From Minisyncoccota bacterium (GTDB lineage Bacteria; Patescibacteriota; Minisyncoccia; Phycocordibacterales; UBA918), in the NCBI GenBank assembly GCA_937975855.1, contig CALJTT010000010.1, positions 1-55,024 on the forward strand: a stretch of DNA of 55,024 bases. Reading direction: 5' to 3'. Both the position numbers and the translations under genes were made by a program. The notes beneath the pieces are model-generated. The model made no database searches. It was given only the letters and a program-made list of their open reading frames with translations, and was not told where the DNA came from. Below are positions 1,224 through 36,005 of this stretch, piece after piece (the stretch's first letter is position 1; each line of letters starts with the position of its first letter).

Positions 1224-1559
1224 ATGAAAATCACCCACATTCGCAAGCGAGACGGCTCAACCCAGCCATACGATCACGAGAAAATCGTCAACGCTATTGC
1301 TCGGGCACTAGCAGAAACTGGAGAAGGAAACCGTGAAGATGCAACAATAGTTGCTGAAATCGCAGAACACAAAATCGTCGCATTTTGTGTTCAGGCTGGT
1401 ACAGCTGAGGAAGGGAGTGCAATACATGGTAAGTGTATTGATGGTCATCCGGCAGTGGAAGAAATTCAAGACGTAGTGGAGCAAGCTTTGATGGAGAAGG
1501 ATTTCTTTGTCACAGCCAAGACGTACATTATCTATCGTAATGAACGGAAGAAGTTGCGC
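1224..1559 (+). other. ATP-cone domain region of nrdB
   Basis: It starts with the K-R-D-G-x-x-x-x-(F/Y)-x-x-x-K-I pattern typical of ATP-cones and ends with the Y-x-x-Y-R helix. A ~25-residue insertion (VAFCVQAGTAEEGSAIHGKCIDGH) lies inside the domain. Confidence 0.75.
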
Positions 1560-2537
1560 GAGAAAGATGTTTTTTCAAAACGAGTAGAGCTAAAGCCGTA
1601 CGAGTATCCAGAGCTATACGAATATGTAGATGCAATTCGTCACTCATATTGGGTGCACACAGAATTCAACTTCACCGGAGACATGCAGGACTTCCATGTG
1701 AATATCACTGAATCCGAACGTAACGCAATCAAGCGCACAATGCTCGCAATTGCTCAGATCGAAGTAGCGGTAAAAAGTTTCTGGGGCAAGATCGGTGACA
1801 AGCTGCCAAAGCCAGAGATTGCTGCTGTTGGAGCAACTTTCGCAGAGAGTGAGGTGCGCCACACCGACGCGTACGCTCACCTGCTCGAGATTCTCGGCCT
1901 AAACGATGAATTTTCAAATATAAAAAACATTCCAGTAATCCAGGAGCGAATGGATTACCTCGGGAAGGTATCACAACTCGCGCAAGGAAAAGAGGACCGA
2001 GAGTATGTTCACGCGATCATGCTGTTCTCACTGTTTGTAGAGCACGTTTCATTGTTCTCGCAGTTCCTCATTATGATGAGCTTCAACAAACACAAGAATG
2101 TGTTCAAAGGCATTTCAAATGCTGTAGAAGCAACCAGTAAAGAAGAGAACCTTCACGGCATGTTTGGAATTGATGTGATCAACATCATTCAACAAGAGCA
2201 CCCAGAATGGTTCGACGCAGAATGTGAATCTGCGATCATTACTGCTTGCGAGGAAGCTTATACTGCAGAAGCAAAGATCATTGACTGGATTTTCGAAGCA
2301 GGAGAATTAGACTTCTTGCCAGCTGCAAACATCAAAGAGTTCATCAAGCACCGATTCAACAACTCGCTCGCTGCGATCAACATGCCACGTCACTTTGATG
2401 TCAGCGACGCCTTGCTTGAAGAGACTGACTGGTTTGATAACGAAGTTATTGCTACGAAGCACGTCGACTTCTTTGACAAGCGGTCAATCAATTACAACAA
2501 GCGTTCGTCTAGTGTGACTAGTGACGATCTATTCTAA
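1224..2537 (+). CDS. nrdB: Class I ribonucleotide reductase beta (radical-generating) subunit with N-terminal ATP-cone
   Basis: 437 aa. Residues 1 to ~112 form an ATP-cone (IRKRDGSTQPYDHEKIVNAI ... TYIIYRNERKKLRE). The rest is a ferritin-like R2 core: first metal ligand Glu (AQIEVAV), an ExxH (ESEVRH) with Tyr at H+4 (HTDAY), and a second ExxH (EENLH). Confidence 0.9.
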   Translation: MKITHIRKRDGSTQPYDHEKIVNAIARALAETGEGNREDATIVAEIAEHKIVAFCVQAGTAEEGSAIHGKCIDGHPAVEEIQDVVEQALMEKDFFVTAKTYIIYRNERKKLREKDVFSKRVELKPYEYPELYEYVDAIRHSYWVHTEFNFTGDMQDFHVNITESERNAIKRTMLAIAQIEVAVKSFWGKIGDKLPKPEIAAVGATFAESEVRHTDAYAHLLEILGLNDEFSNIKNIPVIQERMDYLGKVSQLAQGKEDREYVHAIMLFSLFVEHVSLFSQFLIMMSFNKHKNVFKGISNAVEATSKEENLHGMFGIDVINIIQQEHPEWFDAECESAIITACEEAYTAEAKIIDWIFEAGELDFLPAANIKEFIKHRFNNSLAAINMPRHFDVSDALLEETDWFDNEVIATKHVDFFDKRSINYNKRSSSVTSDDLF

Positions 2538-2614
2538 ATCGTCTACAATACAAACACGACACATCATTTACATTTGGAAGCAGTCGCGCTTAGAAACTAA
2601 CTGGAAGATACAAA

Positions 2615-4309
2615 ATGAACAAAGAACCTTGGTACTGGGTTAACGAAAATACACGAGCGTTTATGGCTCGTGGTTATCTGGTGGATGATCAGACTACCGA
2701 AGAGCGCGTTCGAGCCATTGGAGAATTTGCTGAGAAAACTCTCGGAAAAGAAGGTTTTGCAGACAAATTCGAAGACTATATGTCCAAAGGTTGGGTTAGT
2801 CTCGCTACACCAGTCTGGGCAAACTTTGGTCTTGAGCGCGGACTGCCGATTAGTTGCTTTGGTTCATACGTCTCAGACGATATGGCCAATATTTTGCATA
2901 CTCAAGCAGAGGTCGGCATGATGAGTAAGTATGGAGGCGGTTGTAGTGCTTACTTCGGTGATTTGCGCGGCCGAGGAACAGAGATTCTAAACAACGGCTA
3001 TTCGTCTGGGCCAGTGCACTTTATGCAGCTGTTCGAGAAGATTCTTGACGTGATCAGTCAGGGTGCTACAAGACGTGGTGTCTTCGCGGCCTATTTGCCA
3101 GTAGAGCATCCAGACATTCTAGAGCATCTCGATATCGGTACAGAAGGTAACCCAATTCAGAAAATCCAAAATGCCGTCACAGTAGGAGACGAGTGGATGC
3201 AGTCAATGATCGATGGAGACGAGGACAAGCGCAAGATCTGGGCTAAGATCATCCAGCGACGTGGTGAGATCGGCTACCCTTACATTATCTTTAGCGACAA
3301 TGCCAACAACGCCAAGCCACAGGTCTACAAAGACAAAAACTTGCCGATCTACGCCAGTAACGTTTGTAGCGAGATCATGTTGCCGTCGAGTAAAGACTGG
3401 TCTTTCGTTTGCTGTCTTTCTTCTCTAAATGTTCGTCACTACGATGAATGGAAAGACACTGACTTGGTTGAGACTATGACTTGGTTCCTAGAGGCTGTGA
3501 TGACCAACTTCATCGACAAGCTAGAGGCGATGCGCGATGGTGACAACGAAGACAAGCGTCTTGCATTCAAGTTTATGGAACGCCCGTACAATTTTGCTAA
3601 GGCAAACCGCGCGTTGGGTCTTGGCGCGTTGGGGTATCATTCGTATCTGCAAAGCAAAGGTCTGCCATTTACGAGTACTAAAGCTAAAGCACTCAATAAA
3701 GAAATTTTCAAAACAATCCAAGCTCGGTCTTTTGCAGCCAGTGCTGAGATGGCCAAGGAACTGGGAGAGCCAGAAATCCTCAAAGGCTATGGACGAAGAC
3801 ACACGACAACAATGGCCATTGCTCCAAACACGTCTTCTGGGTTTATTCTTGGACAAGTGTCGCAGGGTATCGAACCGATCTGGAGTAACTGTTACATTAA
3901 AGACGTAGCGAAGTTGAAGGTGGTGATCAAGAACCCACTTCTTGAAGAGCTGCTTGAAGAGAAAGGTAAGAACGACAAAGTTACCTGGGACAGTATTCGT
4001 GACAATGATGGGTCGGTGCAGCATCTCGATATTCTATCTGACGAAGAGAAAGACGTTTTCCGAACATTTGCCGAAATTGACCAGAATATACTGATTGAAC
4101 ATGCTGGAGACCGACAGAAATTCATCGACCAGGGTCAGTCACTGAATGTGATGGTGCCACCAGACGTCCCACCAAAAGAAATCAACCAGCTATACATCGA
4201 AGCTTGGAAGGGGGGTTGTAAAGCGCTCTACTACCAGCACAGCATGAACGCAGCCCAGCAGATGGTGCGCAAGAAGTTGGCTGAGAAGGAAGCCAAGAGC
4301 AAAAAATAA
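2615..4309 (+). CDS. nrdA: Class I ribonucleotide reductase alpha subunit, short form without ATP-cone
   Basis: 564 aa. Contains PISCFGS (equivalent of Cys225), SNVCSEIMLP (the N-C-E catalytic motif) and ALYYQH (radical-transfer Tyr pair). The protein starts directly with the core fold. The C-terminal tail after YY contains no Cys. Confidence 0.92.
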   Translation: MNKEPWYWVNENTRAFMARGYLVDDQTTEERVRAIGEFAEKTLGKEGFADKFEDYMSKGWVSLATPVWANFGLERGLPISCFGSYVSDDMANILHTQAEVGMMSKYGGGCSAYFGDLRGRGTEILNNGYSSGPVHFMQLFEKILDVISQGATRRGVFAAYLPVEHPDILEHLDIGTEGNPIQKIQNAVTVGDEWMQSMIDGDEDKRKIWAKIIQRRGEIGYPYIIFSDNANNAKPQVYKDKNLPIYASNVCSEIMLPSSKDWSFVCCLSSLNVRHYDEWKDTDLVETMTWFLEAVMTNFIDKLEAMRDGDNEDKRLAFKFMERPYNFAKANRALGLGALGYHSYLQSKGLPFTSTKAKALNKEIFKTIQARSFAASAEMAKELGEPEILKGYGRRHTTTMAIAPNTSSGFILGQVSQGIEPIWSNCYIKDVAKLKVVIKNPLLEELLEEKGKNDKVTWDSIRDNDGSVQHLDILSDEEKDVFRTFAEIDQNILIEHAGDRQKFIDQGQSLNVMVPPDVPPKEINQLYIEAWKGGCKALYYQHSMNAAQQMVRKKLAEKEAKSKK

Positions 4310-6360: not shown

Positions 6361-6927
6361 TTACGAAATGAGACGAAGCACTCTAGCCAGTGTCTCTTCC
6401 GGAGTACCAACTGGTATCCAGTTAAGGTTCTTGATTGTTCTGGCAGCATGTTCAGACTCGTATGAGGCAGTAATTCGCCGTTCGATTTCTTCTGGATCGT
6501 CGCCACGCTCATACATCCGCCGACGCAGTTCGTCGTCTCCCGGGCTTTCGAGGTAGATAGGAATAATCTTTACTCCTCGAGGGCTGAACTCACGCTGCAA
6601 GATGTCGTGCTGACCTTCAGTGGTTGTGATGTTAACAAAAGCAAAACCTTCTGCTTGGTCCAGAACTCGGTTCACTTCAGTTTTGGTAAGACCATAGTGA
6701 TGAGTTCCAAATAAACACACGTCCCACAGTAAGTCATCACATTGACCCATTTCCTCCATCGTGAGGAAGTAATAGGCGTTGTCTGGCTCACCGTTACGCT
6801 GATCACGTGTGGTGATGGTGATGAGTCTGCTTTGTGGAAAAAGTTTGAGCAGAGCAAGTTCAAGAATCGTCTTACCACCACCGGAAGGGCCGGAGATGAT
6901 GAGCAGTTTAGACTGTTCGATCGTCAT
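6361..6927 (-). CDS. gmk: Guanylate kinase-like P-loop nucleoside monophosphate kinase
   Basis: 188 aa. P-loop ISGPSGGGKT, and TTRDQRNGEPDNAYYF matching the Gmk motif TTRxxRxGExxGxxYxF. A GGAGA Shine-Dalgarno lies ~11 nt upstream. Confidence 0.72.
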   Translation of the reverse strand: MTIEQSKLLIISGPSGGGKTILELALLKLFPQSRLITITTRDQRNGEPDNAYYFLTMEEMGQCDDLLWDVCLFGTHHYGLTKTEVNRVLDQAEGFAFVNITTTEGQHDILQREFSPRGVKIIPIYLESPGDDELRRRMYERGDDPEEIERRITASYESEHAARTIKNLNWIPVGTPEETLARVLRLIS

Positions 6928-7027
6928 TGGACGTCTCCGTGCGCTGAAGGGGTTCTTTGATTATTATGCAGTTTTTTAGTAAAAAGTCAATAGATTACCT
7001 ATTTTTTATGTTTGTTAGAATCTCTTT

Positions 7028-7609
7028 ATGAAAATACAACGTCCTCCATCTTCACAACCACTACCAGACCACGCCGAGTGCGTGTTCAAAGGGCAGATTT
7101 TTGATGTGTATCAGTGGCAGCAGGAAATGTATGATGGTTCGACTGCGACTTTTGAAAAGTTGAAGCGGGCTGACACGGTGATTGTTTTTCCGGTGCTAGA
7201 TAATGGAAACATTCTGCTTACCAAACAAGAGCAGCCAGGCAAACGTCCGTTCATTGGAGCTCCAGGTGGGCGAGTAGACCCTGGGGAAGAAGTGTTCGAG
7301 GCAGCCAAACGCGAGCTGCTAGAGGAAACAGGTTGTGTGGCTGATGAGTTCGAGCTTTATAATTCAACCCAGCCAGTAAGTAAAATCGAGTGGGCAGTCT
7401 ATGTATTTATTGCCAAAGGAGTAAAGAAGGTGGCAGATCTCAACCTAGATCCAGGAGAGAAGATTGAACTCGTTGAGTACTCGTTCAAAGAATTTCTAAA
7501 GGTCGCGTGCGGGCCGGATTTCGACGGTAAAGAAATCGTCCGCGATGTACTTGAAGCTAAAATGGACGAGGACAAAATGAAAGAATTGAAGCTGAAGTTT
7601 TCACAATAA
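7028..7609 (+). CDS. NUDIX hydrolase (ADP-ribose pyrophosphatase-like)
   Basis: 193 aa with an intact NUDIX box: GAPGGRVDPGEEVFEAAKRELLEETG. Confidence 0.85.
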   Translation: MKIQRPPSSQPLPDHAECVFKGQIFDVYQWQQEMYDGSTATFEKLKRADTVIVFPVLDNGNILLTKQEQPGKRPFIGAPGGRVDPGEEVFEAAKRELLEETGCVADEFELYNSTQPVSKIEWAVYVFIAKGVKKVADLNLDPGEKIELVEYSFKEFLKVACGPDFDGKEIVRDVLEAKMDEDKMKELKLKFSQ

Positions 7610-8224: not shown

Positions 8225-8569
8225 GTGGCAACAAGACCGACATACTCCTTCACTTACCAGGGTGAATCTTATCGCTTGTCTCATTCAGCGTTCCAGTGTC
8301 CCTGGACGTATCGAGGTAGATGGTGCGGTATTCCGCTGTACTGTCCGGTACGGGAGGACGTTCAATGCACAACCGAATATGAATTTTGGCGAGTGTTACA
8401 AAACGTGTTCGCGAGACATCGTGTAGAGCTTCCAGATACGGCGTCCGTCACTGTACATACAGAAACATCAGGTCAGTTTCTCTGTAATGTTAGGCTGCCC
8501 GACGACGCATTTCTTGGCCATGGTCTTCTTGTGCTATGTTCTGGTCATGGTGCTCAGAAAGCTGCGTAA
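8225..8569 (+). CDS. Hypothetical Cys/Trp-rich protein (GTG start)
   Basis: 114-aa ORF bracketed by the rplK terminator and its own terminator. No family recognised. It occupies the position where rplA normally follows rplK. Confidence 0.4.
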   Translation: MATRPTYSFTYQGESYRLSHSAFQCPWTYRGRWCGIPLYCPVREDVQCTTEYEFWRVLQNVFARHRVELPDTASVTVHTETSGQFLCNVRLPDDAFLGHGLLVLCSGHGAQKAA

Positions 8570-8577
8570 ATTTTTAA

Positions 8578-8610
8578 AGCCCGGTGTCACGACAGACGCC
8601 GGGCTTTTTG
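8578..8610 (+). terminator. Rho-independent terminator after the 8225-8569 ORF
   Basis: AGCCCGG ... CCGGGCT stem followed by TTTTT. It lies inside the long-ORF prediction 8487-9335, which argues for the internal ATG at 8625 as the true start of the next gene. Confidence 0.7.
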
Positions 8611-8624
8611 CTATTCTAGTGGCC

Positions 8625-9335
8625 ATGCAATACATTCCCATCAAAACTCGTATCATGCAGCCTCCTCAGGACGACTTGTTTGCTGTGCTAGATGAATGTC
8701 TGACTGATGTGCAAGAGAAAGACGTGCTGGTTGTTTCCTCAAAAATAGTTTCAATACACGAGGGTAATTGTTTGCCAGCTGAAAAAACAGACAAAGCTCA
8801 TCTTATAGAACAGGAGGCAGACTTACTAGTTCCACGGGACTATTGGAGTTCACCACTGACAGTCACACGCAACGCGTTCATTGGCACTGCCGGCGTCGAT
8901 GAGAGTAATGCTAATGGATATCTGGTCCCTTTACCAAAAGATTCGTTTGCGAGTGCCAAGGCTATTTATGAATATATAAAGACTCGATTTGGGATAGAGC
9001 AATTTGGCGTAGTAGTGACAGACAGTCACTCGACACCTCTGAGGCGTGGAGCAATGGGTGTGGCTATCGGCTGGTGGGGAATCGAACCCACGATCGATCA
9101 TGTGGGGGAAGAGGATTTGTTTGGGCGAGAGCTCAAGGTCGAAGTGAGTAACCTGGTGGACGGCATCGCTGCGGGCGCAACAGTTGTGATGGGAGAAACG
9201 GTAGAGTGTCAGCCGGTTGTGATAGCGCGTGACATACCCAACCTGTCTTTTACCGAAACTGACACTAAAGATCAGTTGTTTGTATCATTCGAAGAAGACA
9301 CTTTCCGGGTGTTGTACGAACGTTTTTTAAATTGA
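8625..9335 (+). CDS. CofE-like (F420-0:gamma-glutamyl ligase family) protein
   Basis: VLVVSSKIVSIHEGN, GTAGVDESNANGY, VVVTDSHSTPLRRGAMGVAIGWWGIEP and AAGATVVMGE..QPVVIARD together follow the CofE/F420-ligase fold pattern. The start was moved to the ATG at 8625, downstream of the terminator. Confidence 0.78.
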   Translation: MQYIPIKTRIMQPPQDDLFAVLDECLTDVQEKDVLVVSSKIVSIHEGNCLPAEKTDKAHLIEQEADLLVPRDYWSSPLTVTRNAFIGTAGVDESNANGYLVPLPKDSFASAKAIYEYIKTRFGIEQFGVVVTDSHSTPLRRGAMGVAIGWWGIEPTIDHVGEEDLFGRELKVEVSNLVDGIAAGATVVMGETVECQPVVIARDIPNLSFTETDTKDQLFVSFEEDTFRVLYERFLN

Positions 9336-9357: not shown

Positions 9358-9771
9358 ATGAAAACAGTATATGTTGGTATGGCACTCACAGACGCCCCGG
9401 AAGAATTTCGAGGGATGTTCCAAAATGAATTAAAAGATGCCCTACGCACTCTCCCAGATGTTGAGGTGCTTGATTTTATTGGACTAGAGAATGGTACTGA
9501 GATTGATGTCTACGAGTACGATCGGAAATGTACAGAAGAATGTGATCTGATGGTGGCAGTGTGTGACCATGCGTCTTTGGGATTAGGTATGGAAATCGCA
9601 TTTCGACAAACTTCAGGAAAGCCGCTCTGTATATTTGCAAAGGAGGATGCAAAAGTGACACGTATGGTGACCGGTATGGCAGCGAAAGAGGACTGCCGGT
9701 TTGTACGATATCAAAGTGTCGACGATATTATCCAGGTAGTTTCAGCTGAATTAGAGAAAATGTCTAACTAA
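9358..9771 (+). CDS. Nucleoside 2-deoxyribosyltransferase-superfamily protein, DNPH1/Rcl-like (deoxy)nucleotide N-glycosidase
   Basis: 137 aa. CDLMVAVCDHASLGLGMEIAFRQTSGKPLCIFAKE matches the DNPH1 core (ADVVVAEVTQPSLGVGYELGRA...ILCLF), including the catalytic Glu. Confidence 0.7.
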   Translation: MKTVYVGMALTDAPEEFRGMFQNELKDALRTLPDVEVLDFIGLENGTEIDVYEYDRKCTEECDLMVAVCDHASLGLGMEIAFRQTSGKPLCIFAKEDAKVTRMVTGMAAKEDCRFVRYQSVDDIIQVVSAELEKMSN

Positions 9772-10279
9772 CTGTCCGTTTAAAATCAACCCATTCAAAT
9801 TGTAAATTTTTATGAAGCTGGATTTGTGAACGATTTACTTCGGTAAAGTCAGATTCAAATTCTGGGAAAAAAGTGTCCCCGGGTAAATCATCGTGAAAAA
9901 TCGTGATGTGAAGATTGTCGACGAAGGGAAGTGCTTGACGGTAAAGTTCGCTTCCACCACCAATGTGAATTTCTGAGGGTTTTTCTTGTGCGGCTTGTGC
10001 AAACGCTTCTTCTAAGCTGTGAACGACTGTGATACCGTCATGCTTGTATTTCTGATCTCGAGTCACCACGATGCTCAGGCGATTTGGCAGAGGTTTACCT
10101 AAAATATCTATAATAGATTCAAATGTTTTTCTACCCAGTATGACGGGCTTGTGTAACGTAAGTTCTTTGAAGCGACGCATGTCAGCTGGAACATGCCACA
10201 GCAAGTTGTTTTTGTGGCCGATCACACGGGTTTTGCTACCCATGCTAGCGACGATTGCGACAGGAATATTTTTGTACAT
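9764..10279 (-). CDS. folA: Dihydrofolate reductase
   Basis: 171 aa. VIGHKNNLLWHVPADMRRFKELTLHKPVILGRKTFESI and the GGG motif (IHIGGGSELY) align with the E. coli FolA core, including Asp27. Confidence 0.9.
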   Translation of the reverse strand: MYKNIPVAIVASMGSKTRVIGHKNNLLWHVPADMRRFKELTLHKPVILGRKTFESIIDILGKPLPNRLSIVVTRDQKYKHDGITVVHSLEEAFAQAAQEKPSEIHIGGGSELYRQALPFVDNLHITIFHDDLPGDTFFPEFESDFTEVNRSQIQLHKNLQFEWVDFKRTVS

Positions 10280-10291
10280 TCGTTATTTTCT

Positions 10292-10927
10292 TTATTCTGA
10301 AACCGCGTGCTCAGTTTTCAGGGTTTTTATGTCACCGCTGAGCACAAGTTCAATTTCGTCTTTCTTGTCCGGTTCACCCTTTTCAATAACGTCTTTTCTG
10401 TGCCAACGGCTCTGTCTGGCGTCGACGGCGTGACTTAGGTCTTCGAATACTATTTGACAGAATCGTTCGCCGGGATACAGACGAATGATCTGTGACGCGG
10501 TATTGTTGCGTACAGGAAGTGTTAGCATGCCTTCGTAGCCAGAGTCAATGATTCCGGTCAGATCGACTGATAAGCCCTTTCGATTGACGGATGAACGTGG
10601 ATATAAAATGGCCATCAAATCTTTAGGGATCTTTACGCTCTCAAGAGAAGAAACAAGGATGTGTTCATTAGGAAGCAGTTCAAAATACTGACCTTGTTCT
10701 AGTTCGATCACATCAAAATATTCTGGACCATGATTACGTAGTGGATCAATTCGTAACGCTTCGCGACCGGACTTGGTTATGATGTATTGCTTTGGCAACA
10801 TGAACGTAAAGCCGAGACGAAGGTCAACCGAGTGGGCTTGTAGTTGAAATGTGTCGACATTGGGTTCGATTGCGAGGTCTCCGTTTTTGATCCGTGAGAG
10901 GATTTCTGTTTGTGTGAGTACTGACAT
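10292..10927 (-). CDS. dCTP deaminase/dUTPase-superfamily protein (Dcd-like, catalytic Glu not conserved)
   Basis: 211 aa. Dcd-like N-terminus (EILSRIKNGDLAIEP ... HSVDLRLG) and PRSSVNRKGL (equivalent of GRSSLARLGL). IIDSGYEGMLTLPVRNN aligns to E. coli IDPGWSGCIVLEFYN with Pro at the Glu138 position. There is an extra charged C-terminal tail of ~35 aa. Confidence 0.8.
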   Translation of the reverse strand: MSVLTQTEILSRIKNGDLAIEPNVDTFQLQAHSVDLRLGFTFMLPKQYIITKSGREALRIDPLRNHGPEYFDVIELEQGQYFELLPNEHILVSSLESVKIPKDLMAILYPRSSVNRKGLSVDLTGIIDSGYEGMLTLPVRNNTASQIIRLYPGERFCQIVFEDLSHAVDARQSRWHRKDVIEKGEPDKKDEIELVLSGDIKTLKTEHAVSE

Positions 10928-10939
10928 GGGAAGTGTGCG

Positions 10940-11785
10940 TTATAAAACTATTTTTAATCCTTTGATGGCTGCTTGAGGAGTGTATTGTTGCGTGAGGTTT
11001 TCGATGATTTCTTTTACGACAGCGTGGTCTTTTTTCTCTGCTCGTGCAAATGTATCTTTAGGAATTTGCAGGTCAATAGGAGCGTGTTCGCAGGTGCGAT
11101 TGAGCATCTCTCGGGCGCCATCATAATGGATGTCATAAATATGCGCGTTTGAAATAGTGTGTGTATAAATTCCAGGAGCGACATTTAGACGTTTAGCCAG
11201 AATATGTTGCAATAATGCAAAGCCAGCCACGTCCGCCGGATTGCCAAGAATCATATCGTTGCTACGAACAATATTGTGTAAGTGCAATCGACCACCAATG
11301 ATGTTAGCTGTAAATCCAAACGGGCAAGGTACGTTTGCTCTTTTCATTCCTCCGAGTCCATCACTGCCGGGATCCCACGCCAAGACAACGCCGTGACGGG
11401 AACTTGGTTCTCGTTCGAGTAGTGTGATCAAGTCTCCAAGTTGGTCACGTCCAAAATGTTTTCGCCAACGGTACCCATAGGCAACAGTGAGCGTGTCTCC
11501 GGGATTAGTAAAATCGTCCCAGATTTTTGTGTACTCACGAAGGAAATCACCTGGTTTGCGTAGTCCAGCGATAAACCAGACCTGTTCGGCAACAAACATT
11601 TTTACGGGTACCTTACGAAGTGAGAGTAGCGGAAAGCCGTCTTTCTCAAGATCAATGTTAAATGTTACTCCTGGTAGACTCATAGTAGAGTGCCCAGTAC
11701 GTTCGTTGACCTCTTCAATGCCGTGGTCGAGTATGTTGCGAATGGCGTTTTGATAGACGATGTCGTAGCCACTGGTTTGTTGCAT
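10940..11785 (-). CDS. Thymidylate synthase (ThyA) family enzyme with Asp at the Asn177 specificity position
   Basis: 281 aa. Aligns without gaps to E. coli ThyA from Cys146 through Asn177: VPCPFGFTANIIGGRLHLHNIVRSNDMILGNPADVAGFALL versus [41 protein letters not shown]. Arg21, Glu58, Cys146, Arg166, Ser167, Asp169, His207 and Tyr209 are conserved. Asn177 is replaced by Asp. Confidence 0.85.
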   Translation of the reverse strand: MQQTSGYDIVYQNAIRNILDHGIEEVNERTGHSTMSLPGVTFNIDLEKDGFPLLSLRKVPVKMFVAEQVWFIAGLRKPGDFLREYTKIWDDFTNPGDTLTVAYGYRWRKHFGRDQLGDLITLLEREPSSRHGVVLAWDPGSDGLGGMKRANVPCPFGFTANIIGGRLHLHNIVRSNDMILGNPADVAGFALLQHILAKRLNVAPGIYTHTISNAHIYDIHYDGAREMLNRTCEHAPIDLQIPKDTFARAEKKDHAVVKEIIENLTQQYTPQAAIKGLKIVL

Positions 11786-11791
11786 AAAAGC

Positions 11792-11820
11792 ATTGTACTA
11801 ATACGCACGAAAACTATCAA
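11792..11820 (-). promoter_or_regulatory. Near-consensus promoter of the thyA-like/dcd-like/folA operon (TTGATA-17-TACAAT), 6 nt upstream of the ATG
   Basis: On the minus strand the sequence reads TTGATA gttttcgtgcgtattag TACAAT gctttt ATG. Confidence 0.6.
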
Positions 11821-11880: not shown

Positions 11881-12408
11881 ATGAATACTGTATCGGACCT
11901 AAATATAAAAAAAGCTATCGAGTATCCGTATCTTCCTGAGGGGAGGACGCTTGAATATGTTCCGATTACCAATCAGCACATGGCCGCTGCCCGCGCGTAC
12001 GCTGAGGAGAATTCTATTGACACAACTATGCCAACCGGCTCGGTGTTGGTTCTGAATGGTGAGATCATCGGACGAGGTGCCAATGGCAGTACGTATCATC
12101 AGGAAAACGTCTGTGTCCGTGTTGCTCAAAATATTCCAACCGGCCAGGGATATGACTTGTGTGAAGGATGTACGCACAAGAACCACAGCGAACCGAGGTC
12201 AATTTTAGATGCTCAAGAACGGGGTCATGAAACCAAGGGGGCAGATTTATATTTGTGGGGTCACTGGTGGTGTTGCGAGCCGTGCTGGAACGCAATGATC
12301 AAGGCGGGCGTACATAGAGTGTTCTTGATGGAAGGGAGCCAAATTTTTTTTAACAAAGAAGAGGAAGGTAACGTTGTGGGACGGCAGTTTGACGTGTCAC
12401 GCGTTTAA
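11881..12408 (+). CDS. Deoxycytidylate (dCMP) deaminase / cytidine-deoxycytidylate deaminase family
   Basis: 175 aa. Zinc motifs HSE (H-x-E) and CEPC (CxxC within CCEPCWNAMIKAGV), with spacing typical of ComEB/dCMP deaminases. Confidence 0.8.
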   Translation: MNTVSDLNIKKAIEYPYLPEGRTLEYVPITNQHMAAARAYAEENSIDTTMPTGSVLVLNGEIIGRGANGSTYHQENVCVRVAQNIPTGQGYDLCEGCTHKNHSEPRSILDAQERGHETKGADLYLWGHWWCCEPCWNAMIKAGVHRVFLMEGSQIFFNKEEEGNVVGRQFDVSRV

Positions 12409-12500
12409 CTCCCCGCCCGCGTGGCCCCGTTTTGACGTAATAAAACGTACTCATTACGCCGTGATATCATGCAAAAGTATAAGTAACTCTATTGACCGAT

Positions 12501-13184
12501 ATGGCAGGAAAACTCATAGTTATTGAAGGAGGAGATGGAGCGGGAAAGGCTACCCAAGCCAAACTACTGATTGATCGTTTGCAGTCTGATGGACATGATG
12601 TCAAGACTTTGGATTTTCCGCGTTATACAGATAACCACTTTGGCAAACTGATTCGCGAATGTTTGGATGGAGGGCGAGGTGATTTTATGAAAATGGACCC
12701 ACGTGTGGTGGCGACACTATACGCCGCCGATCGATTCGAAACAAAATCGACACTTGAAGAATGGTTGGCAGCAGACAACATAGTTGTGCTCGACCGCTAT
12801 GTGAGTGCCAATATGATGCACCAAGGTGCGAAGCTGCAAGACGATGCAGAGCTGCCGGCTCTGATTGAATGGATTGATGATATGGAATTTGAAGTGTTTG
12901 GCATACCTCGCCCAGATGTGACGTTCTATTTTGATATTCCATTCGAGACTCGCAAAAAATTAAAGCAGCAGGCGGCAACAGAAGGGAAGCATACTGGCGA
13001 ACTGGATGTGGCCGAGAAGGATCAGGAACATCAGCGACTAGTTGGAGAGCGAGCTCAAAAAATCGTTGGACTACGACCTGACTGGCAACAAATTACTTGC
13101 TGTACAGACGAAAATGAACTTCGTTCTATCGACGATATTCACAAAGAGGTTTACGGGATTGTTTCTAAGATTGTGAAGACATGA
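12501..13184 (+). CDS. tmk: Thymidylate kinase-family dNMP kinase
   Basis: P-loop IEGGDGAGKAT, DRY motif (VLDRYVSAN) and a LID-like region. The ORF track starts at TTG 12492; the ATG at 12501 (MAGKLIVIEG) is more likely. Confidence 0.85.
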   Translation: MAGKLIVIEGGDGAGKATQAKLLIDRLQSDGHDVKTLDFPRYTDNHFGKLIRECLDGGRGDFMKMDPRVVATLYAADRFETKSTLEEWLAADNIVVLDRYVSANMMHQGAKLQDDAELPALIEWIDDMEFEVFGIPRPDVTFYFDIPFETRKKLKQQAATEGKHTGELDVAEKDQEHQRLVGERAQKIVGLRPDWQQITCCTDENELRSIDDIHKEVYGIVSKIVKT

Positions 13185-13606
13185 AACTACAAATAAAAAA
13201 ATTGCATCCTGACGCTAAGCTGCCAACATTTGCCCACGCGACAGATGCTGGGATGGATTTGTATACAGTAGAAGATTTTGAACTTAAACCCGGTGAACAT
13301 ACAGCTTACATAAAAACGGGCATATCGATTGCCTTGCCTGATGGATATGCTGGGCTGGTTTGGGATAAAAGTGGAATTGCAAATAAGCGTCATTTAAAAG
13401 TCACTGGCGGTGTGTTTGATTCTGACTATAGGGGGGAATACCTGATTGGTTTATTTAACTTTGGAAATGAAACTCAAACATTTGTAGCGGGTGACAAGGT
13501 TGCTCAGCTTCTGATTCAGAAAGTTGAACATCCAGAAATAGTAGAAGTAAAAGAACTGGATGAAACAGATCGTGGTGAAGGTAGATTTGGAAGCACTGGA
13601 ACATAA
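13181..13606 (+). CDS. dut: dUTP pyrophosphatase (trimeric dUTPase)
   Basis: 141 aa. Contains AGMDLY, GLVWDKSG, GVFDSDYRGEY and a C-terminal RGEGRFGSTG motif V. It overlaps the tmk stop codon (ATGA). Confidence 0.9.
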   Translation: MKLQIKKLHPDAKLPTFAHATDAGMDLYTVEDFELKPGEHTAYIKTGISIALPDGYAGLVWDKSGIANKRHLKVTGGVFDSDYRGEYLIGLFNFGNETQTFVAGDKVAQLLIQKVEHPEIVEVKELDETDRGEGRFGSTGT

Positions 13607-13713: not shown

Positions 13714-14982
13714 ATGAACGAGTATAACTACATCAAAAATCAGGACGAAGAAATCTACGACACACTGGTCGGTGAGGAAGAGCGGGAGAAAAAAGGAATT
13801 GAACTCATTCCTAGTGAGAACTATGTGTCGATGGCAACCCGTGAAGCGATGGGGTCTGTCTTTACAAACAAGTATTCTGAAGGCTACCCAGGGCGTCGAT
13901 ACTACGGTGGGCAGGAGTTCACAGATGCAATGGAGCGGATTGCAATTGATCGAGCCAAACAATTGTTCAAAGCCGAGTATGCCAACGTTCAACCATTAGG
14001 TGGGGCGGCGGCAAACGTCGCGATGTATTTTGCGTTGATGGAGCCGGGCGACACGGTGTTGGGAATGGACTTGTCTCACGGCGGGCACCTGACTCATGGT
14101 CACCCGACGACAGCGATCAACAAAGTCTTTAACTTTGTTCGATATAAAATGAAAGACGTCGACACGGGTGAGATCGACTACGACCACTTGCGCGAGATGG
14201 CGATAGAACACAAGCCAAAGATTATCCTCGCTGGTTTCTCGGCCTATAGTCGTGAACTCGACTACACGAAGTTCAAAGAAATCGCTGACGAGGTCGGCGC
14301 GTATACAGTGGCAGACATGGCACACATCACCGGATTGATTGCGTCGGGAGTTTTAAAAAATCCGTTTGATTATGGTTTCGACGTGATGACCATGACAACC
14401 CACAAGTCATTGCGTGGACCACGAGGTGGGATGATTGTCGTGCGTGAAAGTGCCGAGATTGCCAAAAAAATAAACAAGGCAGTGTTCCCAGGAATGCAGG
14501 GCGGGCCGCACATGCACCAGATTGCTGCCAAAGCCGTAGCATTTAAAGAAGCGCTTGATCCAAGTTTCAAAGCATATGCGCAGCAGATTGTTAAAAACGC
14601 TAAGGCGATGGAGGTCGTATTTAAAGCTGAGAACGTGCGTCTGATGTGTGGTGGAACTGACAATCACTTGTTGTTGGCCGACGTGCACAGCTCACTGAAC
14701 ATTACCGGCCAAGAAGCTGAGGACGTCCTCGAAGAAGTTGGTATCACGCTCAACAAAAACATGATCGCCGACGAACCACGCACAGCGATGGACCCGTCAG
14801 GAATTCGTTTTGGTACCCCGGCCATGACAACACGAGGAATGAAAGAAGAACAGGCGACCCGTCTGGCAGAAATCATGATTGAAATTATGCGCAACAAAGA
14901 CGATGCTGACAAAAAGGCCGAACTGCAAAAAGAAGTGCAGGAGATGTGTGAAGCGTTTCCAGTGCCAGAAAAGTTTGTGTAG
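13714..14982 (+). CDS. glyA: Serine hydroxymethyltransferase
   Basis: 422 aa. Contains ELIPSENY, YYGG and the PLP-lysine motif TTHKSLRGPRGG. Confidence 0.95.
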   Translation: MNEYNYIKNQDEEIYDTLVGEEEREKKGIELIPSENYVSMATREAMGSVFTNKYSEGYPGRRYYGGQEFTDAMERIAIDRAKQLFKAEYANVQPLGGAAANVAMYFALMEPGDTVLGMDLSHGGHLTHGHPTTAINKVFNFVRYKMKDVDTGEIDYDHLREMAIEHKPKIILAGFSAYSRELDYTKFKEIADEVGAYTVADMAHITGLIASGVLKNPFDYGFDVMTMTTHKSLRGPRGGMIVVRESAEIAKKINKAVFPGMQGGPHMHQIAAKAVAFKEALDPSFKAYAQQIVKNAKAMEVVFKAENVRLMCGGTDNHLLLADVHSSLNITGQEAEDVLEEVGITLNKNMIADEPRTAMDPSGIRFGTPAMTTRGMKEEQATRLAEIMIEIMRNKDDADKKAELQKEVQEMCEAFPVPEKFV

Positions 14983-15595: not shown

Positions 15596-16225
15596 ATGTT
15601 CGATGCAAATTCAGCTGCTCCTCGCGAGAAGTTGTTGTCCCTGATGGACTTTGTTGAGTTCATTAATTTGTTTCGGTCTGTAAGGCGGACTATTTGGTAC
15701 AAAGGGAGTGATCACGTAGAACTAGACGGTGACCACTCGTTCCAGGTTGCCATGGTTGCTTGGTTCGTAAACTGCCGTTTCGAGCTTGGCCTAAGCACAG
15801 ATCGTCTCATTAGGTATGCACTTGTGCACGACGTACCTGAGGTTTACGCGTTTGATACTCCCAATTTCCTGCGCCCTGGCCCAGTTCAACTGGAAATGTT
15901 TAGTAAGGATGAGTATGAAGGTGCTGCACGCGTTGCCATTCAACAGCAGTGGGGAGATAGGTTCCCTGAACTGTTGAAAGCTATGGATGAGTACGAAGCT
16001 GGTGACGACGAAGAGTCCAAACTGATCTGTGCTCTTGAAAAAATTCTTGCAGTCATAAATATCTACCAGGATGATGGTCGCACATGGCAAAAGCTGGAAA
16101 TAAAATTGGATGAAGCTCTAGACTTTCAGGAGCGTCGTCTTTCAAAACATCCGTTAGTCTCAGAGTTGTGGCAAGAGTTAAAAAAGATTCTGGTTGAATG
16201 CCCGCAGTTGTTCCACCAAAAGTGA
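15596..16225 (+). CDS. HD-domain phosphohydrolase (YfbR-like 5'-deoxynucleotidase candidate)
   Basis: 209 aa. H...HD metal motif (DHSFQVAMVAW ... ALVHDVPEVYAFD). A strong AGGAGGA Shine-Dalgarno lies upstream. Confidence 0.72.
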   Translation: MFDANSAAPREKLLSLMDFVEFINLFRSVRRTIWYKGSDHVELDGDHSFQVAMVAWFVNCRFELGLSTDRLIRYALVHDVPEVYAFDTPNFLRPGPVQLEMFSKDEYEGAARVAIQQQWGDRFPELLKAMDEYEAGDDEESKLICALEKILAVINIYQDDGRTWQKLEIKLDEALDFQERRLSKHPLVSELWQELKKILVECPQLFHQK

Positions 16226-21864: not shown

Positions 21865-24800
21865 ATGAATAAAAAAATGCATGGTCGTGAAAACGATAGT
21901 GTCGAAGTTGTAGATGTAGTAGAAAAGAGTGACGTTGCCCTGCGCGAAGAGGTTATTCTAGAATTCTGGCGTGAGCAGGATATTTTTAATAAAAGTGTGA
22001 TGGTGCCAGCCGGTGAATCACCTAAAAGGGATTTTGTATTTTACGACGGACCACCGTTTGCGACAGGTTTGCCGCACTACGGCCATATTTTGGCTGGAAC
22101 AATCAAGGACGCAATTCCGCGATTTTGGACAATGAACGGCTACCGTGTGCGCCGCAAGTGGGGGTGGGACTGTCATGGATTGCCGTTGGAGAATCTGATT
22201 GAAAAGAAGCTTGGCCTAGCGACTAAGCGCGATATCGAAGAGTACGGCGTACAGAACTTTAATGAGCAAGCGCGTGGGGCAGTAATGGAATACGCTGATG
22301 ACTGGAAACAAATCATCCCCCGTATGGGACGGTGGGCTGACATGGATAACGACTACAAGACCATGGACAGCACCTACACCGAGAGTGTGTGGTGGGTGTT
22401 CAAGCAGCTCCATGAAAAAGGTTTAGTATTTGAAGGATTCAAAACCATGCACCTGTGTCCACGCTGCGGGACAACTTTGAGTAACTTTGAGGTGAACCAG
22501 GGGTACAAAGATATCAAAGACATTGCGGTGACGGTGCCACTAAAACTAGTCGACGATGCCGACGACGCGTCGTTGTTAGTCTGGACTACAACACCGTGGA
22601 CTCTGCCAGGAAACTTGGCAGCGGCTGTGAACCAAGAGTTTGTTTACGTTAAAGTTCGAGTTACGCTGGATGGAAAAGAATGGGTGGTTATTTTGGCCAA
22701 AGAACGCTTGGCTCAATTAGGTGCGGAAGAATACGAGGTCATTGGCGAGATGAAGGGAAGTGATTTGGTCGGTAAAAAATACGAACCACCATTTCCATGG
22801 ATGGGCGAGCAGGATTTTGAAGGGAAGGAGAACGCCTGGCAAATTCTTCATGCGGACTATGTTGAAATCGGTACCGACGGAACTGGTGCTGTTCACATCG
22901 CTCCGGCGTTTGGTGAAGACGATATGATTTTGGCCAAAGAGCACGGTGTGCCGATTGTGCACCACGTTGACAATACCGGACATTTTAAAGATTGGGTGAC
23001 GGATTTTGCAGGTCAACTCGTTAAACCAAAAGACGACGACGAGTCTGGTGTTAGTCACCTCGATGCCGATATTGAAGTAGTCAAAGCTCTGAAAGCCGCT
23101 GGAAAATTATTCAAGAAAGAAAACATCACCCACAGTTATCCGCATTGCTGGCGGTGTGACACTCCACTGCTTAACTATGCGACGACGTCGTGGTTTGTAG
23201 ATGTGCCAAGCATCAAAGACCAGCTGGTCGCAAATAATGACAAGGTAAAGTGGGTGCCGGAACACGTCGGAACAAATCGCTTTGGCAAGTGGCTGGAAGG
23301 AGCTCGCGACTGGGCGGTGTCACGACAGCGTTACTGGGGAGCGCCGCTGCCGATTTGGAAGAATCCCGAAACCAAAGAATACAAAGTGATGGGGAGTCTG
23401 GAAGACATGAAAGAATACGTACCAAAAAGCGGCAACCAGTACTTTGTCATGCGACATGGCGAAAGCGAGAGTAACGTCGCAGCGGTGATTAGTGCGAACA
23501 TCGACAATGATGACTCGATTACAGATACTGGAAAAGAACAAGTGCAGGAGACGGCCGCAGAATTAAAAGACAAAAAAATCGATCTCATTATCGCTTCGCC
23601 ATTTATGCGTACGCGGCAGACTGCTGAGTTGGTTCGCGACGAACTTGGGATAACCGCAGACGCGCTGGTGTTTGATGAACGGATTCGTGAATATGACTTG
23701 GCCGATGAATTTGAAGGAAAGAAGTGGCAGAGGGATTACTCTCAAGCAAACTTCGCCACCTGGGAAGAAAGATTTACCAAAGAACTGCCAGATTCAGAAA
23801 ACCGGCGTGATGTGATGAAGCGCATGGGGGAGTTCTTGTACGATGTTGAACAAACTCACAAAGGGAAGAATATTTTGATCGTTAGTCATGGTGGACCGAT
23901 AGCGACTTTGCGCGCTGTAGTGTCAGGTTGGAATATCGAACAACAAAAGGCAGACTATGACACAGATAGGTATTTCTTAAACGCACAGTGGCAGCAGTTG
24001 GATTTTGTCCCATTGCCTCACAACGACAACTACGAACTAGATTTTCATCGACCTTATATTGACGATGTTGTTTTGGAAGAAGACGGAGTAAAGCTTGAAC
24101 GCGTACCCGACGTGTTTGATTGTTGGTTTGAAAGTGGCTCGATGCCGTACGGCCAGCGACACTTTATGGGTGAGGCACAGAGTGATTTTGATCCGGAGAA
24201 TGGCGTTGGGTTACCGGCGCAGTTTATTGCTGAGGGGCTCGACCAGACTCGCGGCTGGTTCTACTCACTGATCGTGTTGGGCACTGCCTTGTTTGGCAAG
24301 TCTCCGTACGAGAATGTGATTGTAAACGGGCTCGTGTTGGCCGAAGACGGTAAGAAGATGTCAAAAAAGCTACAAAACTACCCGGACCCAATAGAACTGG
24401 CTGATCGAACGGGTGTAGACGCGATGCGATTTTATTTACTTTCTTCATCACTGATGCGAGGCGAAGATCTCAACTTCTCAGAGAAAGAAGTGCTCGAATT
24501 ACAACGAAAAAACATCGGACGACTGCACAACGTTCTCGCGATGTACGAGATATTCGCTGATGGTACCGAAGCTCGGGCTGACTCGGACCACGTGTTGGAC
24601 CGGTGGATCGTGGCGAGACTACAGCAGCTGGTAAACGAGACAACTGCTGGATACAAGTCATACGAACTCGACAAAGCGACGCGGCCAGTCACCGATTTTA
24701 TCGACGACCTATCGGTGTGGTATTTGCGGCGTAGTCGAGATCGACTAAAGAGCGACGACGAGATCGACAAGACTTTGGCGCTCGCGACTTTGCGTCATGT

Positions 24801-25401
24801 GTTGCACACGTTGTCATTAGTGATGGCGCCTGCGATGCCGTTTTATGCCGAACATCTGTGGTGTTCTGTGTGTGAAGAAGATGACGCGGAGAGCGTTCAT
24901 CTGGCTGCCTGGCCAACTGAAGGTGTGGTCGATGAATCTGTGTTGGAAAAGATGGTGGCGACTCGTGACATCGTGACGCAAGCACTCGAGGCTCGAACCA
25001 AAGCCAACATCAAAGTCCGACAGCCGATTGTGTCAGTGTCAGGACCCGAGCTGCCGGATGACTTGCAGCAGATCGTGCTCGACGAACTTAATGCAAAGTC
25101 GTATCAAACTGCAGACAACATTTCGATCGACACTAACCTCACGGATGAGCTTATTGCTGAAGGTGCTGTCCGCGAGCTGATGCGTGCGGTACAAGGAAAA
25201 CGAAAGAAAGAAGGACTAGAACCACATGACGACATTGTTTTGACAGTTCAAACTGCTGATGTTGGGAAAGGGGCGATTGAAGCGCACAAAGAATTACTCG
25301 TCAGTACTGTCGGTGCTACTGATCTACAATTTGCTGCTACTGACGGGGAAGAATTAGTTGTAGGAGATTATCAGTTTACGTTTAGCTTTGAAAAGAAATA
25401 A
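21865..25401 (+). CDS. ileS: Isoleucyl-tRNA synthetase with an internal histidine-phosphatase domain
   Basis: 1178 aa. HIGH (PHYGHILAG), CP1 editing domain (TTTPWTLPGN), Zn knuckles CPRC and CWRC, SRQRYWGAPLPIW, DCWFESGSMP and KMSKS (KKMSKK). An additional ~200-aa domain is inserted at aa ~524-722. Confidence 0.93.
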   Translation: MNKKMHGRENDSVEVVDVVEKSDVALREEVILEFWREQDIFNKSVMVPAGESPKRDFVFYDGPPFATGLPHYGHILAGTIKDAIPRFWTMNGYRVRRKWGWDCHGLPLENLIEKKLGLATKRDIEEYGVQNFNEQARGAVMEYADDWKQIIPRMGRWADMDNDYKTMDSTYTESVWWVFKQLHEKGLVFEGFKTMHLCPRCGTTLSNFEVNQGYKDIKDIAVTVPLKLVDDADDASLLVWTTTPWTLPGNLAAAVNQEFVYVKVRVTLDGKEWVVILAKERLAQLGAEEYEVIGEMKGSDLVGKKYEPPFPWMGEQDFEGKENAWQILHADYVEIGTDGTGAVHIAPAFGEDDMILAKEHGVPIVHHVDNTGHFKDWVTDFAGQLVKPKDDDESGVSHLDADIEVVKALKAAGKLFKKENITHSYPHCWRCDTPLLNYATTSWFVDVPSIKDQLVANNDKVKWVPEHVGTNRFGKWLEGARDWAVSRQRYWGAPLPIWKNPETKEYKVMGSLEDMKEYVPKSGNQYFVMRHGESESNVAAVISANIDNDDSITDTGKEQVQETAAELKDKKIDLIIASPFMRTRQTAELVRDELGITADALVFDERIREYDLADEFEGKKWQRDYSQANFATWEERFTKELPDSENRRDVMKRMGEFLYDVEQTHKGKNILIVSHGGPIATLRAVVSGWNIEQQKADYDTDRYFLNAQWQQLDFVPLPHNDNYELDFHRPYIDDVVLEEDGVKLERVPDVFDCWFESGSMPYGQRHFMGEAQSDFDPENGVGLPAQFIAEGLDQTRGWFYSLIVLGTALFGKSPYENVIVNGLVLAEDGKKMSKKLQNYPDPIELADRTGVDAMRFYLLSSSLMRGEDLNFSEKEVLELQRKNIGRLHNVLAMYEIFADGTEARADSDHVLDRWIVARLQQLVNETTAGYKSYELDKATRPVTDFIDDLSVWYLRRSRDRLKSDDEIDKTLALATLRHVLHTLSLVMAPAMPFYAEHLWCSVCEEDDAESVHLAAWPTEGVVDESVLEKMVATRDIVTQALEARTKANIKVRQPIVSVSGPELPDDLQQIVLDELNAKSYQTADNISIDTNLTDELIAEGAVRELMRAVQGKRKKEGLEPHDDIVLTVQTADVGKGAIEAHKELLVSTVGATDLQFAATDGEELVVGDYQFTFSFEKK
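23434..24030 (+). other. Histidine phosphatase (phosphoglycerate-mutase-like, branch 1) domain embedded in ileS
   Basis: YFVMRHGESESN (RHGxxxxN), ASPFMRTRQTA (second Arg) and LIVSHGGPI (second catalytic His). It is in frame and flanked on both sides by IleRS core motifs. Confidence 0.75.
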
Positions 25402-31312: not shown

Positions 31313-31705
31313 ATGAATAAAGATTTTGAAACGTTACGCGTCCTTGCGCACAAAAATATTACGAACAACCCCTTCTTCAAAGGCAAGGATGAGACTGAAC
31401 TCATTGGATACTTTTTTTCAGGAATTCAAGGTGAAGTTTCCGAAGTCGAAATTGAGTTAAAGCCACAAAACTCTGTTCATCTGACTGACGAATTAAGCGA
31501 CATTATATGGACAAACTTGATGTTGCTTGAGACATGTGCTCGGGCAGGCTGGATTGATAGTATTGATTCCGTATACGAGCATGCTAAACAGAAGTTCATA
31601 GAGCGCTCGCCAGCTTTTGAAACAGCAGACGATAATTTGTGGCAAGAAATTAAAGAGAAACAAAAAGAAAAGCTCAAACGAAACCACGAAGACCGGTATG
31701 GTTAA
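31313..31705 (+). CDS. MazG-like nucleotide pyrophosphohydrolase
   Basis: 130 aa, all-alpha. Contains EVSEVEIEL and LTDELSDIIWTNLML (ExxE ... ExxD metal motifs). Confidence 0.68.
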   Translation: MNKDFETLRVLAHKNITNNPFFKGKDETELIGYFFSGIQGEVSEVEIELKPQNSVHLTDELSDIIWTNLMLLETCARAGWIDSIDSVYEHAKQKFIERSPAFETADDNLWQEIKEKQKEKLKRNHEDRYG

Positions 31706-35981: not shown

Positions 35982-36005
35982 AATTTTAGTGTAGCAAACT
36001 TGTCA

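Follow-up and report, generated by a model that had tools for sequence, protein, structure and literature searches.

In the DNA of Xanthomonas phage Xp12, 5-methylcytosine (5mC) replaces cytosine (C), and the ThyA homologue of this phage gave 5-methyldeoxycytidine (5mdC) in E. coli, as did five of seven metagenomic homologues that have Asp at the position of E. coli Asn177; the deaminase adjoining the phage Asp177 enzyme is selective for 5mC and acts on 5mdCTP, not on the monophosphate, and such selectivity is polyphyletic among deaminases and unpredictable from sequence. Both dCMP methylation (EC 2.1.1.54-type) and the formation of thymidine nucleotides via deaminated 5-methyl-deoxycytidine nucleotides have already been described for phages, and simple in vivo assays for ThyA homologues exist (all bioRxiv 10.1101/2024.12.05.627091). 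Here we describe a ThyA-like gene and its neighbours in a stretch of 55,024 nucleotides from a Minisyncoccota bacterium (positions 1 to 55,024 of contig CALJTT010000010.1, assembly GCA_937975855.1; hereafter the window). This DNA is cellular, encoding a class I ribonucleotide reductase (RNR), several aminoacyl-tRNA synthetases, RecA, FtsK, SSB and ribosomal proteins. Going by sequence comparison, the ThyA-like protein is in our view probably, if far from certainly, a folate-dependent dCMP C5-methyltransferase of the Xp12 kind, recruited as a housekeeping enzyme of Patescibacteria (the candidate phyla radiation, CPR), which would provide dTMP via 5-methyl-dCMP (5mdCMP). To our knowledge, all cells are taken to make thymidylate de novo via dUMP, with either ThyA or ThyX.

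10940..11785, minus strand: predicted dCMP C5-methyltransferase (5mdCMP synthase) of the ThyA superfamily, with an Xp12-type signature (Asn143, Pro147, Val165, Asp169, Asp177 and a ThyA-like C-terminal tail)

Active-site residues of the ThyA-like protein

The open reading frame (ORF) has an ATG start and encodes 281 aa (Pfam Thymidylat_synt, E=4.3e-52). When it is aligned by HMMER to solved ThyA structures, and by MAFFT with E. coli ThyA, T4 gp42 and the Xp12 protein, the region from Cys146 to residue 177 (RSNDMILGNPAD, aligned to the E. coli ThyA segment) contains no gaps and has Asp in the Asn177 column. A preliminary description, made from the letters of the window, had claimed this replacement, and it holds: alignment to the solved ThyA structures places Asp, not Asn, at the base-recognition position of this protein. 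The residues which that description listed as retained (Arg21, Glu58, Arg166, Ser167, His207 and Tyr209) are indeed present, together with Trp80, Tyr94, Arg126, Cys146 and Asp169, and the C-terminus, AIKGLKIVL, is similar to the ThyA tail, as had also been noted; the ThyA catalytic set of Cys146, Glu58, Tyr94, Arg166, Asp169 and a C-terminal tail is thus complete. Further changes with respect to E. coli ThyA are Leu143 to Asn, His147 to Pro, Gln165 to Val, Ser180 to Gly, Asp205 to Asn, Arg127 to His and Trp83 to Phe; the canonical shell around C5 and O4 (Leu143/His147/Gln165) is therefore Asn, Pro and Val here. The only NCBIfam ThyA model whose cutoff the protein passes is TIGR03284, with the others far short. 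Its AlphaFold model (predicted local distance difference test, pLDDT, 84.9) has genuine ThyA structures as all of its top 50 Foldseek matches, at template modelling (TM) scores of 0.72-0.78; both T4 dCMP hydroxymethylase (dCH) and MilA are missing from these 50.

Among the 5.8 billion proteins searched for homologues, 2,425 relatives were found, and by "the 120 relatives" we mean the best 120 of these, which are 65-99% identical and about 278 aa long. All 120 have the motif RSND…P.D, i.e. Asp177, and wherever their source is named it is a Patescibacteria/CPR lineage. Asp177 also occurs in every operon copy with a readable residue 177 among 84 loci, made up of 80 from GTDB, three long contigs and the window. 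This conservation is far beyond chance. Pro147, Val or Ile at 165, Asn143 and Asp169 accompany Asp177 in these relatives.

What the Asp means can be taken from characterised members of the family: cytosine users (T4 CH, MilA, BcmA) have Asp and uracil users (TS, i.e. thymidylate synthase, and SPO1 dUMP hydroxymethylase, dUH) have Asn (PMC5175136; PMC8670742), and a rule set exists for positions 177, 143 and 169 (PMC13326640). The CPR clade has Asp as its base-recognition residue, and not the Asn177 of canonical ThyA. The ribose preference of MilA requires Ala at TS-Ser167 and Lys at TS-Arg126' (PMC5175136), while the CPR proteins keep the Ser (RSND in 120/120) and Arg126; a CMP-specific enzyme of the MilA/BcmA type is ruled out by these two residues.

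Asp177 is also common to T4 gp42-like and RB69 gp48-like enzymes, and the protein could on that ground carry out another C5 chemistry on dCMP, hydroxymethylation or hydroxylation, respectively. The T4 dCH has no C-terminal tail of the kind that seals the ThyA active site, activates water with Asp145 (Cys-3), D145N being inactive, and carries Ser94 two residues before the Tyr (PMC6400193), whereas the CPR proteins have Asn, not Asp or Glu, at Cys-3 (120/120), Val at Tyr-2 (115/120) and a conserved hydrophobic tail of the IKGLKIVL type. The 5-hydroxy-dCMP synthases of the RB69 gp48 type are D169N (PMC13326640), and RSND with Asp169 is found in 120/120. Together with the presence of folA in the operon and the Foldseek result above, this makes either chemistry hardly credible to us, and on the published signatures (143, Tyr-2, C-tail and Asp169) we ruled both out. 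The RSND...ND context quoted for T4 gp42 in the preliminary description is seen in the MAFFT alignment.

The residues expected of an Xp12-type methylase, Asp177 with a non-acidic residue 143 (Asn, as in Xp12) and Asp169, are found in 120/120. Around C5, the 12 shell residues of the CPR clade are W Y x N C P V S N D G D and those of Xp12 W Y K N C P L S S D G D, whereas E. coli has W Y A L C H Q S C D G N and T4 has W Y S D C T M S N D G D. Among representatives outside the CPR that have Asp177 (n=107), residue 143 is Asn in 92 and acidic in none, and Asp169 is found in all; the representatives with Asn177 (canonical ThyA) have Leu143 in 18/18. The combined features predict a 2'-deoxy, cytosine-specific, reductive methylase.

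Distribution and phylogeny

GTDB species genomes contain 352 relatives of the ThyA-like ORF, and the best 80 are nearly all labelled Patescibacteria, covering Saccharibacteria, Kaiser-, Pacei-, Parcu-, Morani-, Doudna-, Taylor-, Colwell-, Vogel-, Adler- and Nomurabacteria and Minisyncoccia; the exceptions are a few unclassified genomes and one short contig binned as Saprospiraceae. That contig (L009, CALDTK010000247.1, 3.6 kb), placed in a 'Saprospiraceae' metagenome-assembled genome, is 99% identical to the TS/Dcd-like/folA region of the window, and is probably a mis-binned CPR contig. An origin from a prophage or from contamination was considered and rejected: the genes lie between nusG/rplK and rplJ/rplL-type core genes, on contigs of up to 1.09 Mb, and IMG/VR viral contigs have next to no enzyme of the CPR type (one match, 35% identity). 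The best phage matches of the ORF, at 35-40% identity, are 'thymidylate synthases' of Xp12 and related Mesyanzhinovviridae (PaMx74 etc.).

Of the 150 nearest representatives in an exhaustive HMMER search, the majority have Asp177, mostly with Pro147 and Phe83, and enzymes with Asn177/His147/Gln165/Trp83 appear only lower in the ranking. Neighbour joining recovers the CPR core clade at 98% bootstrap, and the Asn177 enzymes are grouped separately. As to the placement on a tree that the preliminary description had proposed, the smallest clade holding both the query and Xp12 has Asp177 in 114 of 114 sequences, but a bootstrap of only 20%. We claim no specific sister group because the deep neighbour-joining nodes are weak (8-43%), and a robust sister-group placement was dropped for these low bootstraps.

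Several representatives show domain or gene arrangements of their own. In P0140 a dCMP-deaminase domain is fused to an Asp177 TS, and in P0187 a MazG-like (PRA-PH) NTP pyrophosphohydrolase is fused to an Asp177 TS; P0265 joins an Asn177 TS to dihydrofolate reductase (DHFR). P0273, a near relative that belongs to the P0127 cluster and shares 45% identity with the query, comes from a phage contig on which the next gene downstream encodes a deaminase. P0171 has an HNH endonuclease domain ahead of its TS domain. P0253, P0257 and P0263 have Asp177 but in other respects look like canonical ThyA (Gln165, Asp205, a ThyA-like tail), with His147 in P0257 only; these three may be independent Asn-to-Asp switches.

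The gene module

The operon has the order TS, Dcd-like gene, folA, with 12-nt spacers, while the deaminase, tmk, dut and glyA are transcribed divergently. The features are as follows.

10292..10927, minus strand: Dcd-family protein, second operon gene, with Pro at the catalytic-Glu column and PRSSVNRKG kept; predicted non-deaminating
9764..10279, minus strand: folA, dihydrofolate reductase, third operon gene, 12 nt after the Dcd-like gene; would recycle dihydrofolate (DHF) from reductive methylation
11792..11820, minus strand: promoter-like site TTGATA-17-TACAAT (10/12) in the 95 bp between the divergent genes, a short way upstream of the TS start codon; a consensus match only
11881..12408, plus strand: divergently transcribed deaminase of the cytidine deaminase (CDA) fold, with invariant H102/E104/C132/C135 plus H73/C78/C94/C97; predicted to convert 5mdCMP to dTMP
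12492..13184, plus strand: tmk, thymidylate kinase, downstream of the deaminase
13181..13606, plus strand: dut, a genuine dUTPase, in the flanks of 22/84 loci and a looser partner
13714..14982, plus strand: glyA, serine hydroxymethyltransferase (SHMT), supplying 5,10-methylene-tetrahydrofolate (CH2-THF), in 54/84 loci

Promoter-like sites were not enriched over shuffles. Co-transcription with folA, stated in the preliminary description, is plausible, but the two genes are not adjacent, as the Dcd-like gene sits in between with a 12-nt spacer on either side; the deaminase that it had placed divergently next door is there, across a 95-bp gap. The same layout recurs across many CPR lineages, usually next to rplK: over the 84 loci, the partners are the Dcd-like gene (83), the deaminase (81), folA (78) and tmk (68), followed by glyA and dut at the counts given above, so that the linkage to folA and a deaminase expected of an Xp12-type enzyme is nearly constant. 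Two further genes lie between rplK and folA in the window, one of the F420-0:gamma-glutamyl-ligase family (8487-9335, plus strand) and one for a small protein with a weak nucleoside 2-deoxyribosyltransferase match (Nuc_deoxyrib_tr-like; 9358-9771, plus strand); they were rejected as module members, being found in just 6/84 and 9/84 loci, respectively. One CPR paper reports that folA genes of these bacteria were expressed and tested in E. coli with folA deleted.

The Dcd-like protein differs from dCTP deaminases at a central position. HMMER alignment to solved dCTP deaminases places Pro at the column that, in the VLEFYN strand of E. coli Dcd, holds Glu138, which we take to be the catalytic Glu of that enzyme (GMLTLPVRN here, GxIxLExxN in Dcd), and this Pro is found in 120/120 relatives and in the full-length operon copies over the 84 loci. 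Because Pro replaces the catalytic Glu, the protein is probably unable to deaminate dCTP or to make dUTP; because PRSSVNRKG and a C-terminal SRWHxKDV motif are conserved among its relatives, it is under selection. It is possibly a dCTP pyrophosphatase that gives dCMP. A conserved Glu in the GYEG motif was considered as a relocated catalytic acid and found unlikely, since the position varies (Q/K/A/D). This missing catalytic Glu of the neighbouring 'dcd', like the existing phage precedent, had been left out of the preliminary description. One Saccharibacteria genome has a second divergent Dcd-family paralogue of 255 aa between tmk and the deaminase (L077:6611-7375, minus strand).

The deaminase has both zinc motifs, H-x-E and C-x-x-C, with HSE and CEPC invariant, and is a divergent, two-Cys-cluster member of the CDA fold. 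Its model (pLDDT 90.5) finds the dCMP deaminases of T4, cyanophage S-TIM5, human, PBCV-1 and S. mutans as best Foldseek matches, at TM of just 0.45-0.5.

That the ThyA-like protein is the sole ThyA homologue, as the preliminary description had it, holds for the window. A six-frame hidden Markov model search of the window gives one TS-family match (6.5e-134), the next best having E>1, and no ThyX was found among window ORFs of at least 120 aa covered by Pfam scans. One related genome, on the other hand, also has a canonical ThyA (L004:7842-8777, minus strand, and L005; JGI 3300066188, 1.09 Mb contigs): it is 311 aa long, 64% identical to E. coli ThyA, carries Asn177/His147/Gln165/Leu143, adjoins tmk and lies about 2 kb from the Asp177 gene, the sole such case in the 84 loci. 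The presence of a canonical ThyA beside the Asp177 enzyme suggests that the two have different, non-redundant jobs; the canonical copy may have been horizontally acquired.

A proposed route to dTMP and its alternatives

We suggest that dCTP would be hydrolysed to dCMP by the Glu-less Dcd-like protein, and that the Asp177 enzyme would then convert dCMP and CH2-THF to 5mdCMP and DHF, with the cofactor regenerated by DHFR and SHMT. The divergently transcribed deaminase would turn 5mdCMP into dTMP, which Tmk would phosphorylate to dTDP. Methylation would thus come first and deamination second, and dTMP would be made without a dUMP intermediate. We infer the activities of all the CPR proteins in this scheme; the meanings of the signatures and the activities of the phage enzymes come from the papers cited. 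The dCMP C5-methyltransferase reading, put forward in the preliminary description, is supported because of Asp177, the retained Ser167 and Arg126, the lack of a hydroxymethylase signature, Asp169, folA in the operon and the divergent deaminase; all sequence-level tests that were run agree with it, and this support is of an indirect kind.

A number of points weigh against this scheme. The formation of 5mdCMP and DHF from dCMP and CH2-THF has been demonstrated for phage homologues only, to which the CPR enzyme is just 35-40% identical (the validated ones included), and the tree nodes linking the CPR enzymes to the validated phage enzymes are weak (8-43% bootstrap). A protonated Asp could in principle pair with uracil too. 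The CPR deaminase is no close relative of the Xp12 and mSCD deaminases, and the characterised phage deaminase uses the triphosphate, not the monophosphate (bioRxiv 10.1101/2024.12.05.627091). That the Dcd-like protein acts as a dCTPase is conjecture, and a real dUTPase is encoded within the window. Lastly, the Glu-to-Pro change of the Dcd-like protein, the adjacency of the deaminase and the fusions fit a route from dCMP through dUMP to dTMP equally well. Because these other module features fit both orders, it is the active site of the TS-like enzyme from which we read the order of methylation and deamination.

The same genes can accordingly be read as those of an ordinary thymidylate synthase that methylates dUMP despite Asp177, within a Gram-positive-type route in which dCTP is converted to dCMP (Dcd-like), dUMP (dCMP deaminase), dTMP (TS) and dTDP (Tmk). 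We consider this unlikely, although it would agree with the lack of a second TS-family gene from the window and from nearly all module loci, with a textbook thymidylate cluster of folA, glyA, tmk and dut in which each module gene has a role, with the ThyA-like fold and C-tail and the TIGR03284 match, and with the annotation as thyA in the literature. Against it, all 18 canonical ThyA representatives combine Asn177 with Leu143/His147, the natural Asp177 enzymes tested so far all use a cytosine nucleotide, and the change at 177 goes along with four more shell changes that match those of Xp12. The protein also falls far below the cutoffs of most NCBIfam ThyA equivalog models, and in L004 a canonical ThyA coexists with it.

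A further alternative is that 5mdCMP is phosphorylated and 5mC is put into CPR DNA at replication, replacing C partly or wholly. The deaminase would then channel a share of the pool towards thymidine nucleotides, and the Dcd-like protein would draw down dCTP. In some Saccharimonadales genomes the module is flanked by genes for a dNMP kinase of the T4-gp1 type (Pfam DNMK) and for a HAD hydrolase (L006:11980-13360; L004:11498-12256). An Asp177 TS, a deaminase and DHFR are the gene set of the all-5mC phages, with HAD too in Xp12 and L006; a dCTPase-like function would suit the exclusion of C, and the canonical ThyA of L004 would give dTMP independently. DNMK adjoins the module in just 3/84 loci, however, against 68/84 for tmk; our literature search, which was a weak one, found no report of unusual 5mC content in CPR DNA; and a cell needs some dCTP control in any case, with nothing in the sequence that demands incorporation. 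We therefore hold incorporation to be rather improbable. In its strongest form, Patescibacteria would make 5-methyl-dCTP before replication and 5mC would replace much or all of the genomic C, with the Glu-less Dcd-like protein excluding dCTP and the deaminase supplying thymidine nucleotides as in Xp12; this we regard as decidedly improbable.

Implications

In the literature that we searched, no mention was found of Asp177 in a CPR 'ThyA', of a Glu-less Dcd or of the module, and CPR papers treat the gene as an ordinary thyA; databases likewise name the Asp177 proteins 'thymidylate synthase' and the relatives of the Dcd-like protein 'dCTP deaminase'. The chemistry itself is known from phages; what we rate as new is the proposed use of a phage-type pathway by a major bacterial radiation as its housekeeping route to thymidylate. 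If methylation of dCMP is the true activity, the thymine of an entire radiation of bacteria is made without uracil, by a route known until now only from phages whose DNA contains 5mC, thousands of database entries under the two names above are misnamed, and metabolic reconstructions of CPR, as well as reasoning on their sensitivity to antifolates or drugs of the 5-fluorouracil type, need revision. If instead 5mC stood for much or all of the genomic C, Patescibacteria would be the first cells in which a non-canonical base is used wholesale. This raises the questions of whether CPR DNA contains 5mC that was made on nucleotides, and in which direction the pathway passed between phages and CPR cells. 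Cultured Saccharibacteria exist, so the question is quickly answerable.

Other genes of the window

A class I tRNA synthetase of the Ile/Leu/Val/Met type (21865-25401, plus strand; 1,178 aa) has a His_Phos_1 domain inserted between its catalytic and anticodon-binding parts, and the same architecture is found in a synthetase of 1,209 aa in locus L008. In the class I RNR (1224-4309, plus strand), the small subunit has an N-terminal ATP-cone, and the large subunit is short (564 aa) and has no ATP-cone match; in L008 it is the large subunit that bears the ATP-cone. Nucleotide-handling genes are unusually dense in the window (6361-7609, 15596-16225, 31313-31705 and 35541-36437), including a guanylate-kinase-like gene, three NUDIX genes, an HD/YfbR-like 5'-deoxynucleotidase and MazG.

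Comparison with known systems

The system closest to the CPR module is that of Xp12. Both enzymes share the ThyA fold, the shell N143/P147/hydrophobic 165/D169/D177 and the same best PHROG (phrog_160), as well as two derived motifs which ThyA lacks, AYGYRWR-(deletion)-HFGRDQL and a DGLG insertion before NVPCP; in both, TS, deaminase and DHFR genes are neighbours, and in Xp12 a HAD gene lies directly upstream of the ThyA homologue. In contrast to Xp12, the CPR enzyme has a ThyA-like IKGLKIVL tail, plus N168, N205 and H127, and occurs in cellular genomes beside ribosomal-protein genes, with a deaminase of another subtype; the CPR module also adds the Glu-less Dcd-like gene, tmk and glyA. Its purpose is likely to be the supply of dTMP rather than the protection of DNA, unlike in Xp12.

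With the T4 gp42 dCMP hydroxymethylase, the CPR enzyme shares the Asp at the base-recognition position, the RSND motif and dCMP, its predicted substrate. The two are 21% identical, and where T4 gp42 has Asp145, Ser94 and no C-tail, and releases tetrahydrofolate, the CPR enzyme has Asn, Val, a tail and linkage to DHFR.

Canonical ThyA of E. coli and L. casei resembles the CPR enzyme in fold (TM 0.72-0.78), in the catalytic and phosphate-binding residues, in the C-terminal tail and in linkage to folA; it differs by an identity of about 29% and by seven shifts, namely Asn177 to Asp and those listed above at 143, 147, 165, 83, 205 and 127. The engineered variants L. casei N229D and E. coli N177D are dCMP methylases (cited in PMC8670742); they combine a tailed ThyA scaffold with Asp at 177, and their chemistry is that proposed for the CPR enzyme. 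They are nonetheless single laboratory mutants, whereas the CPR clade is a natural, conserved lineage in which several co-adapted changes of the shell accompany the Asp.

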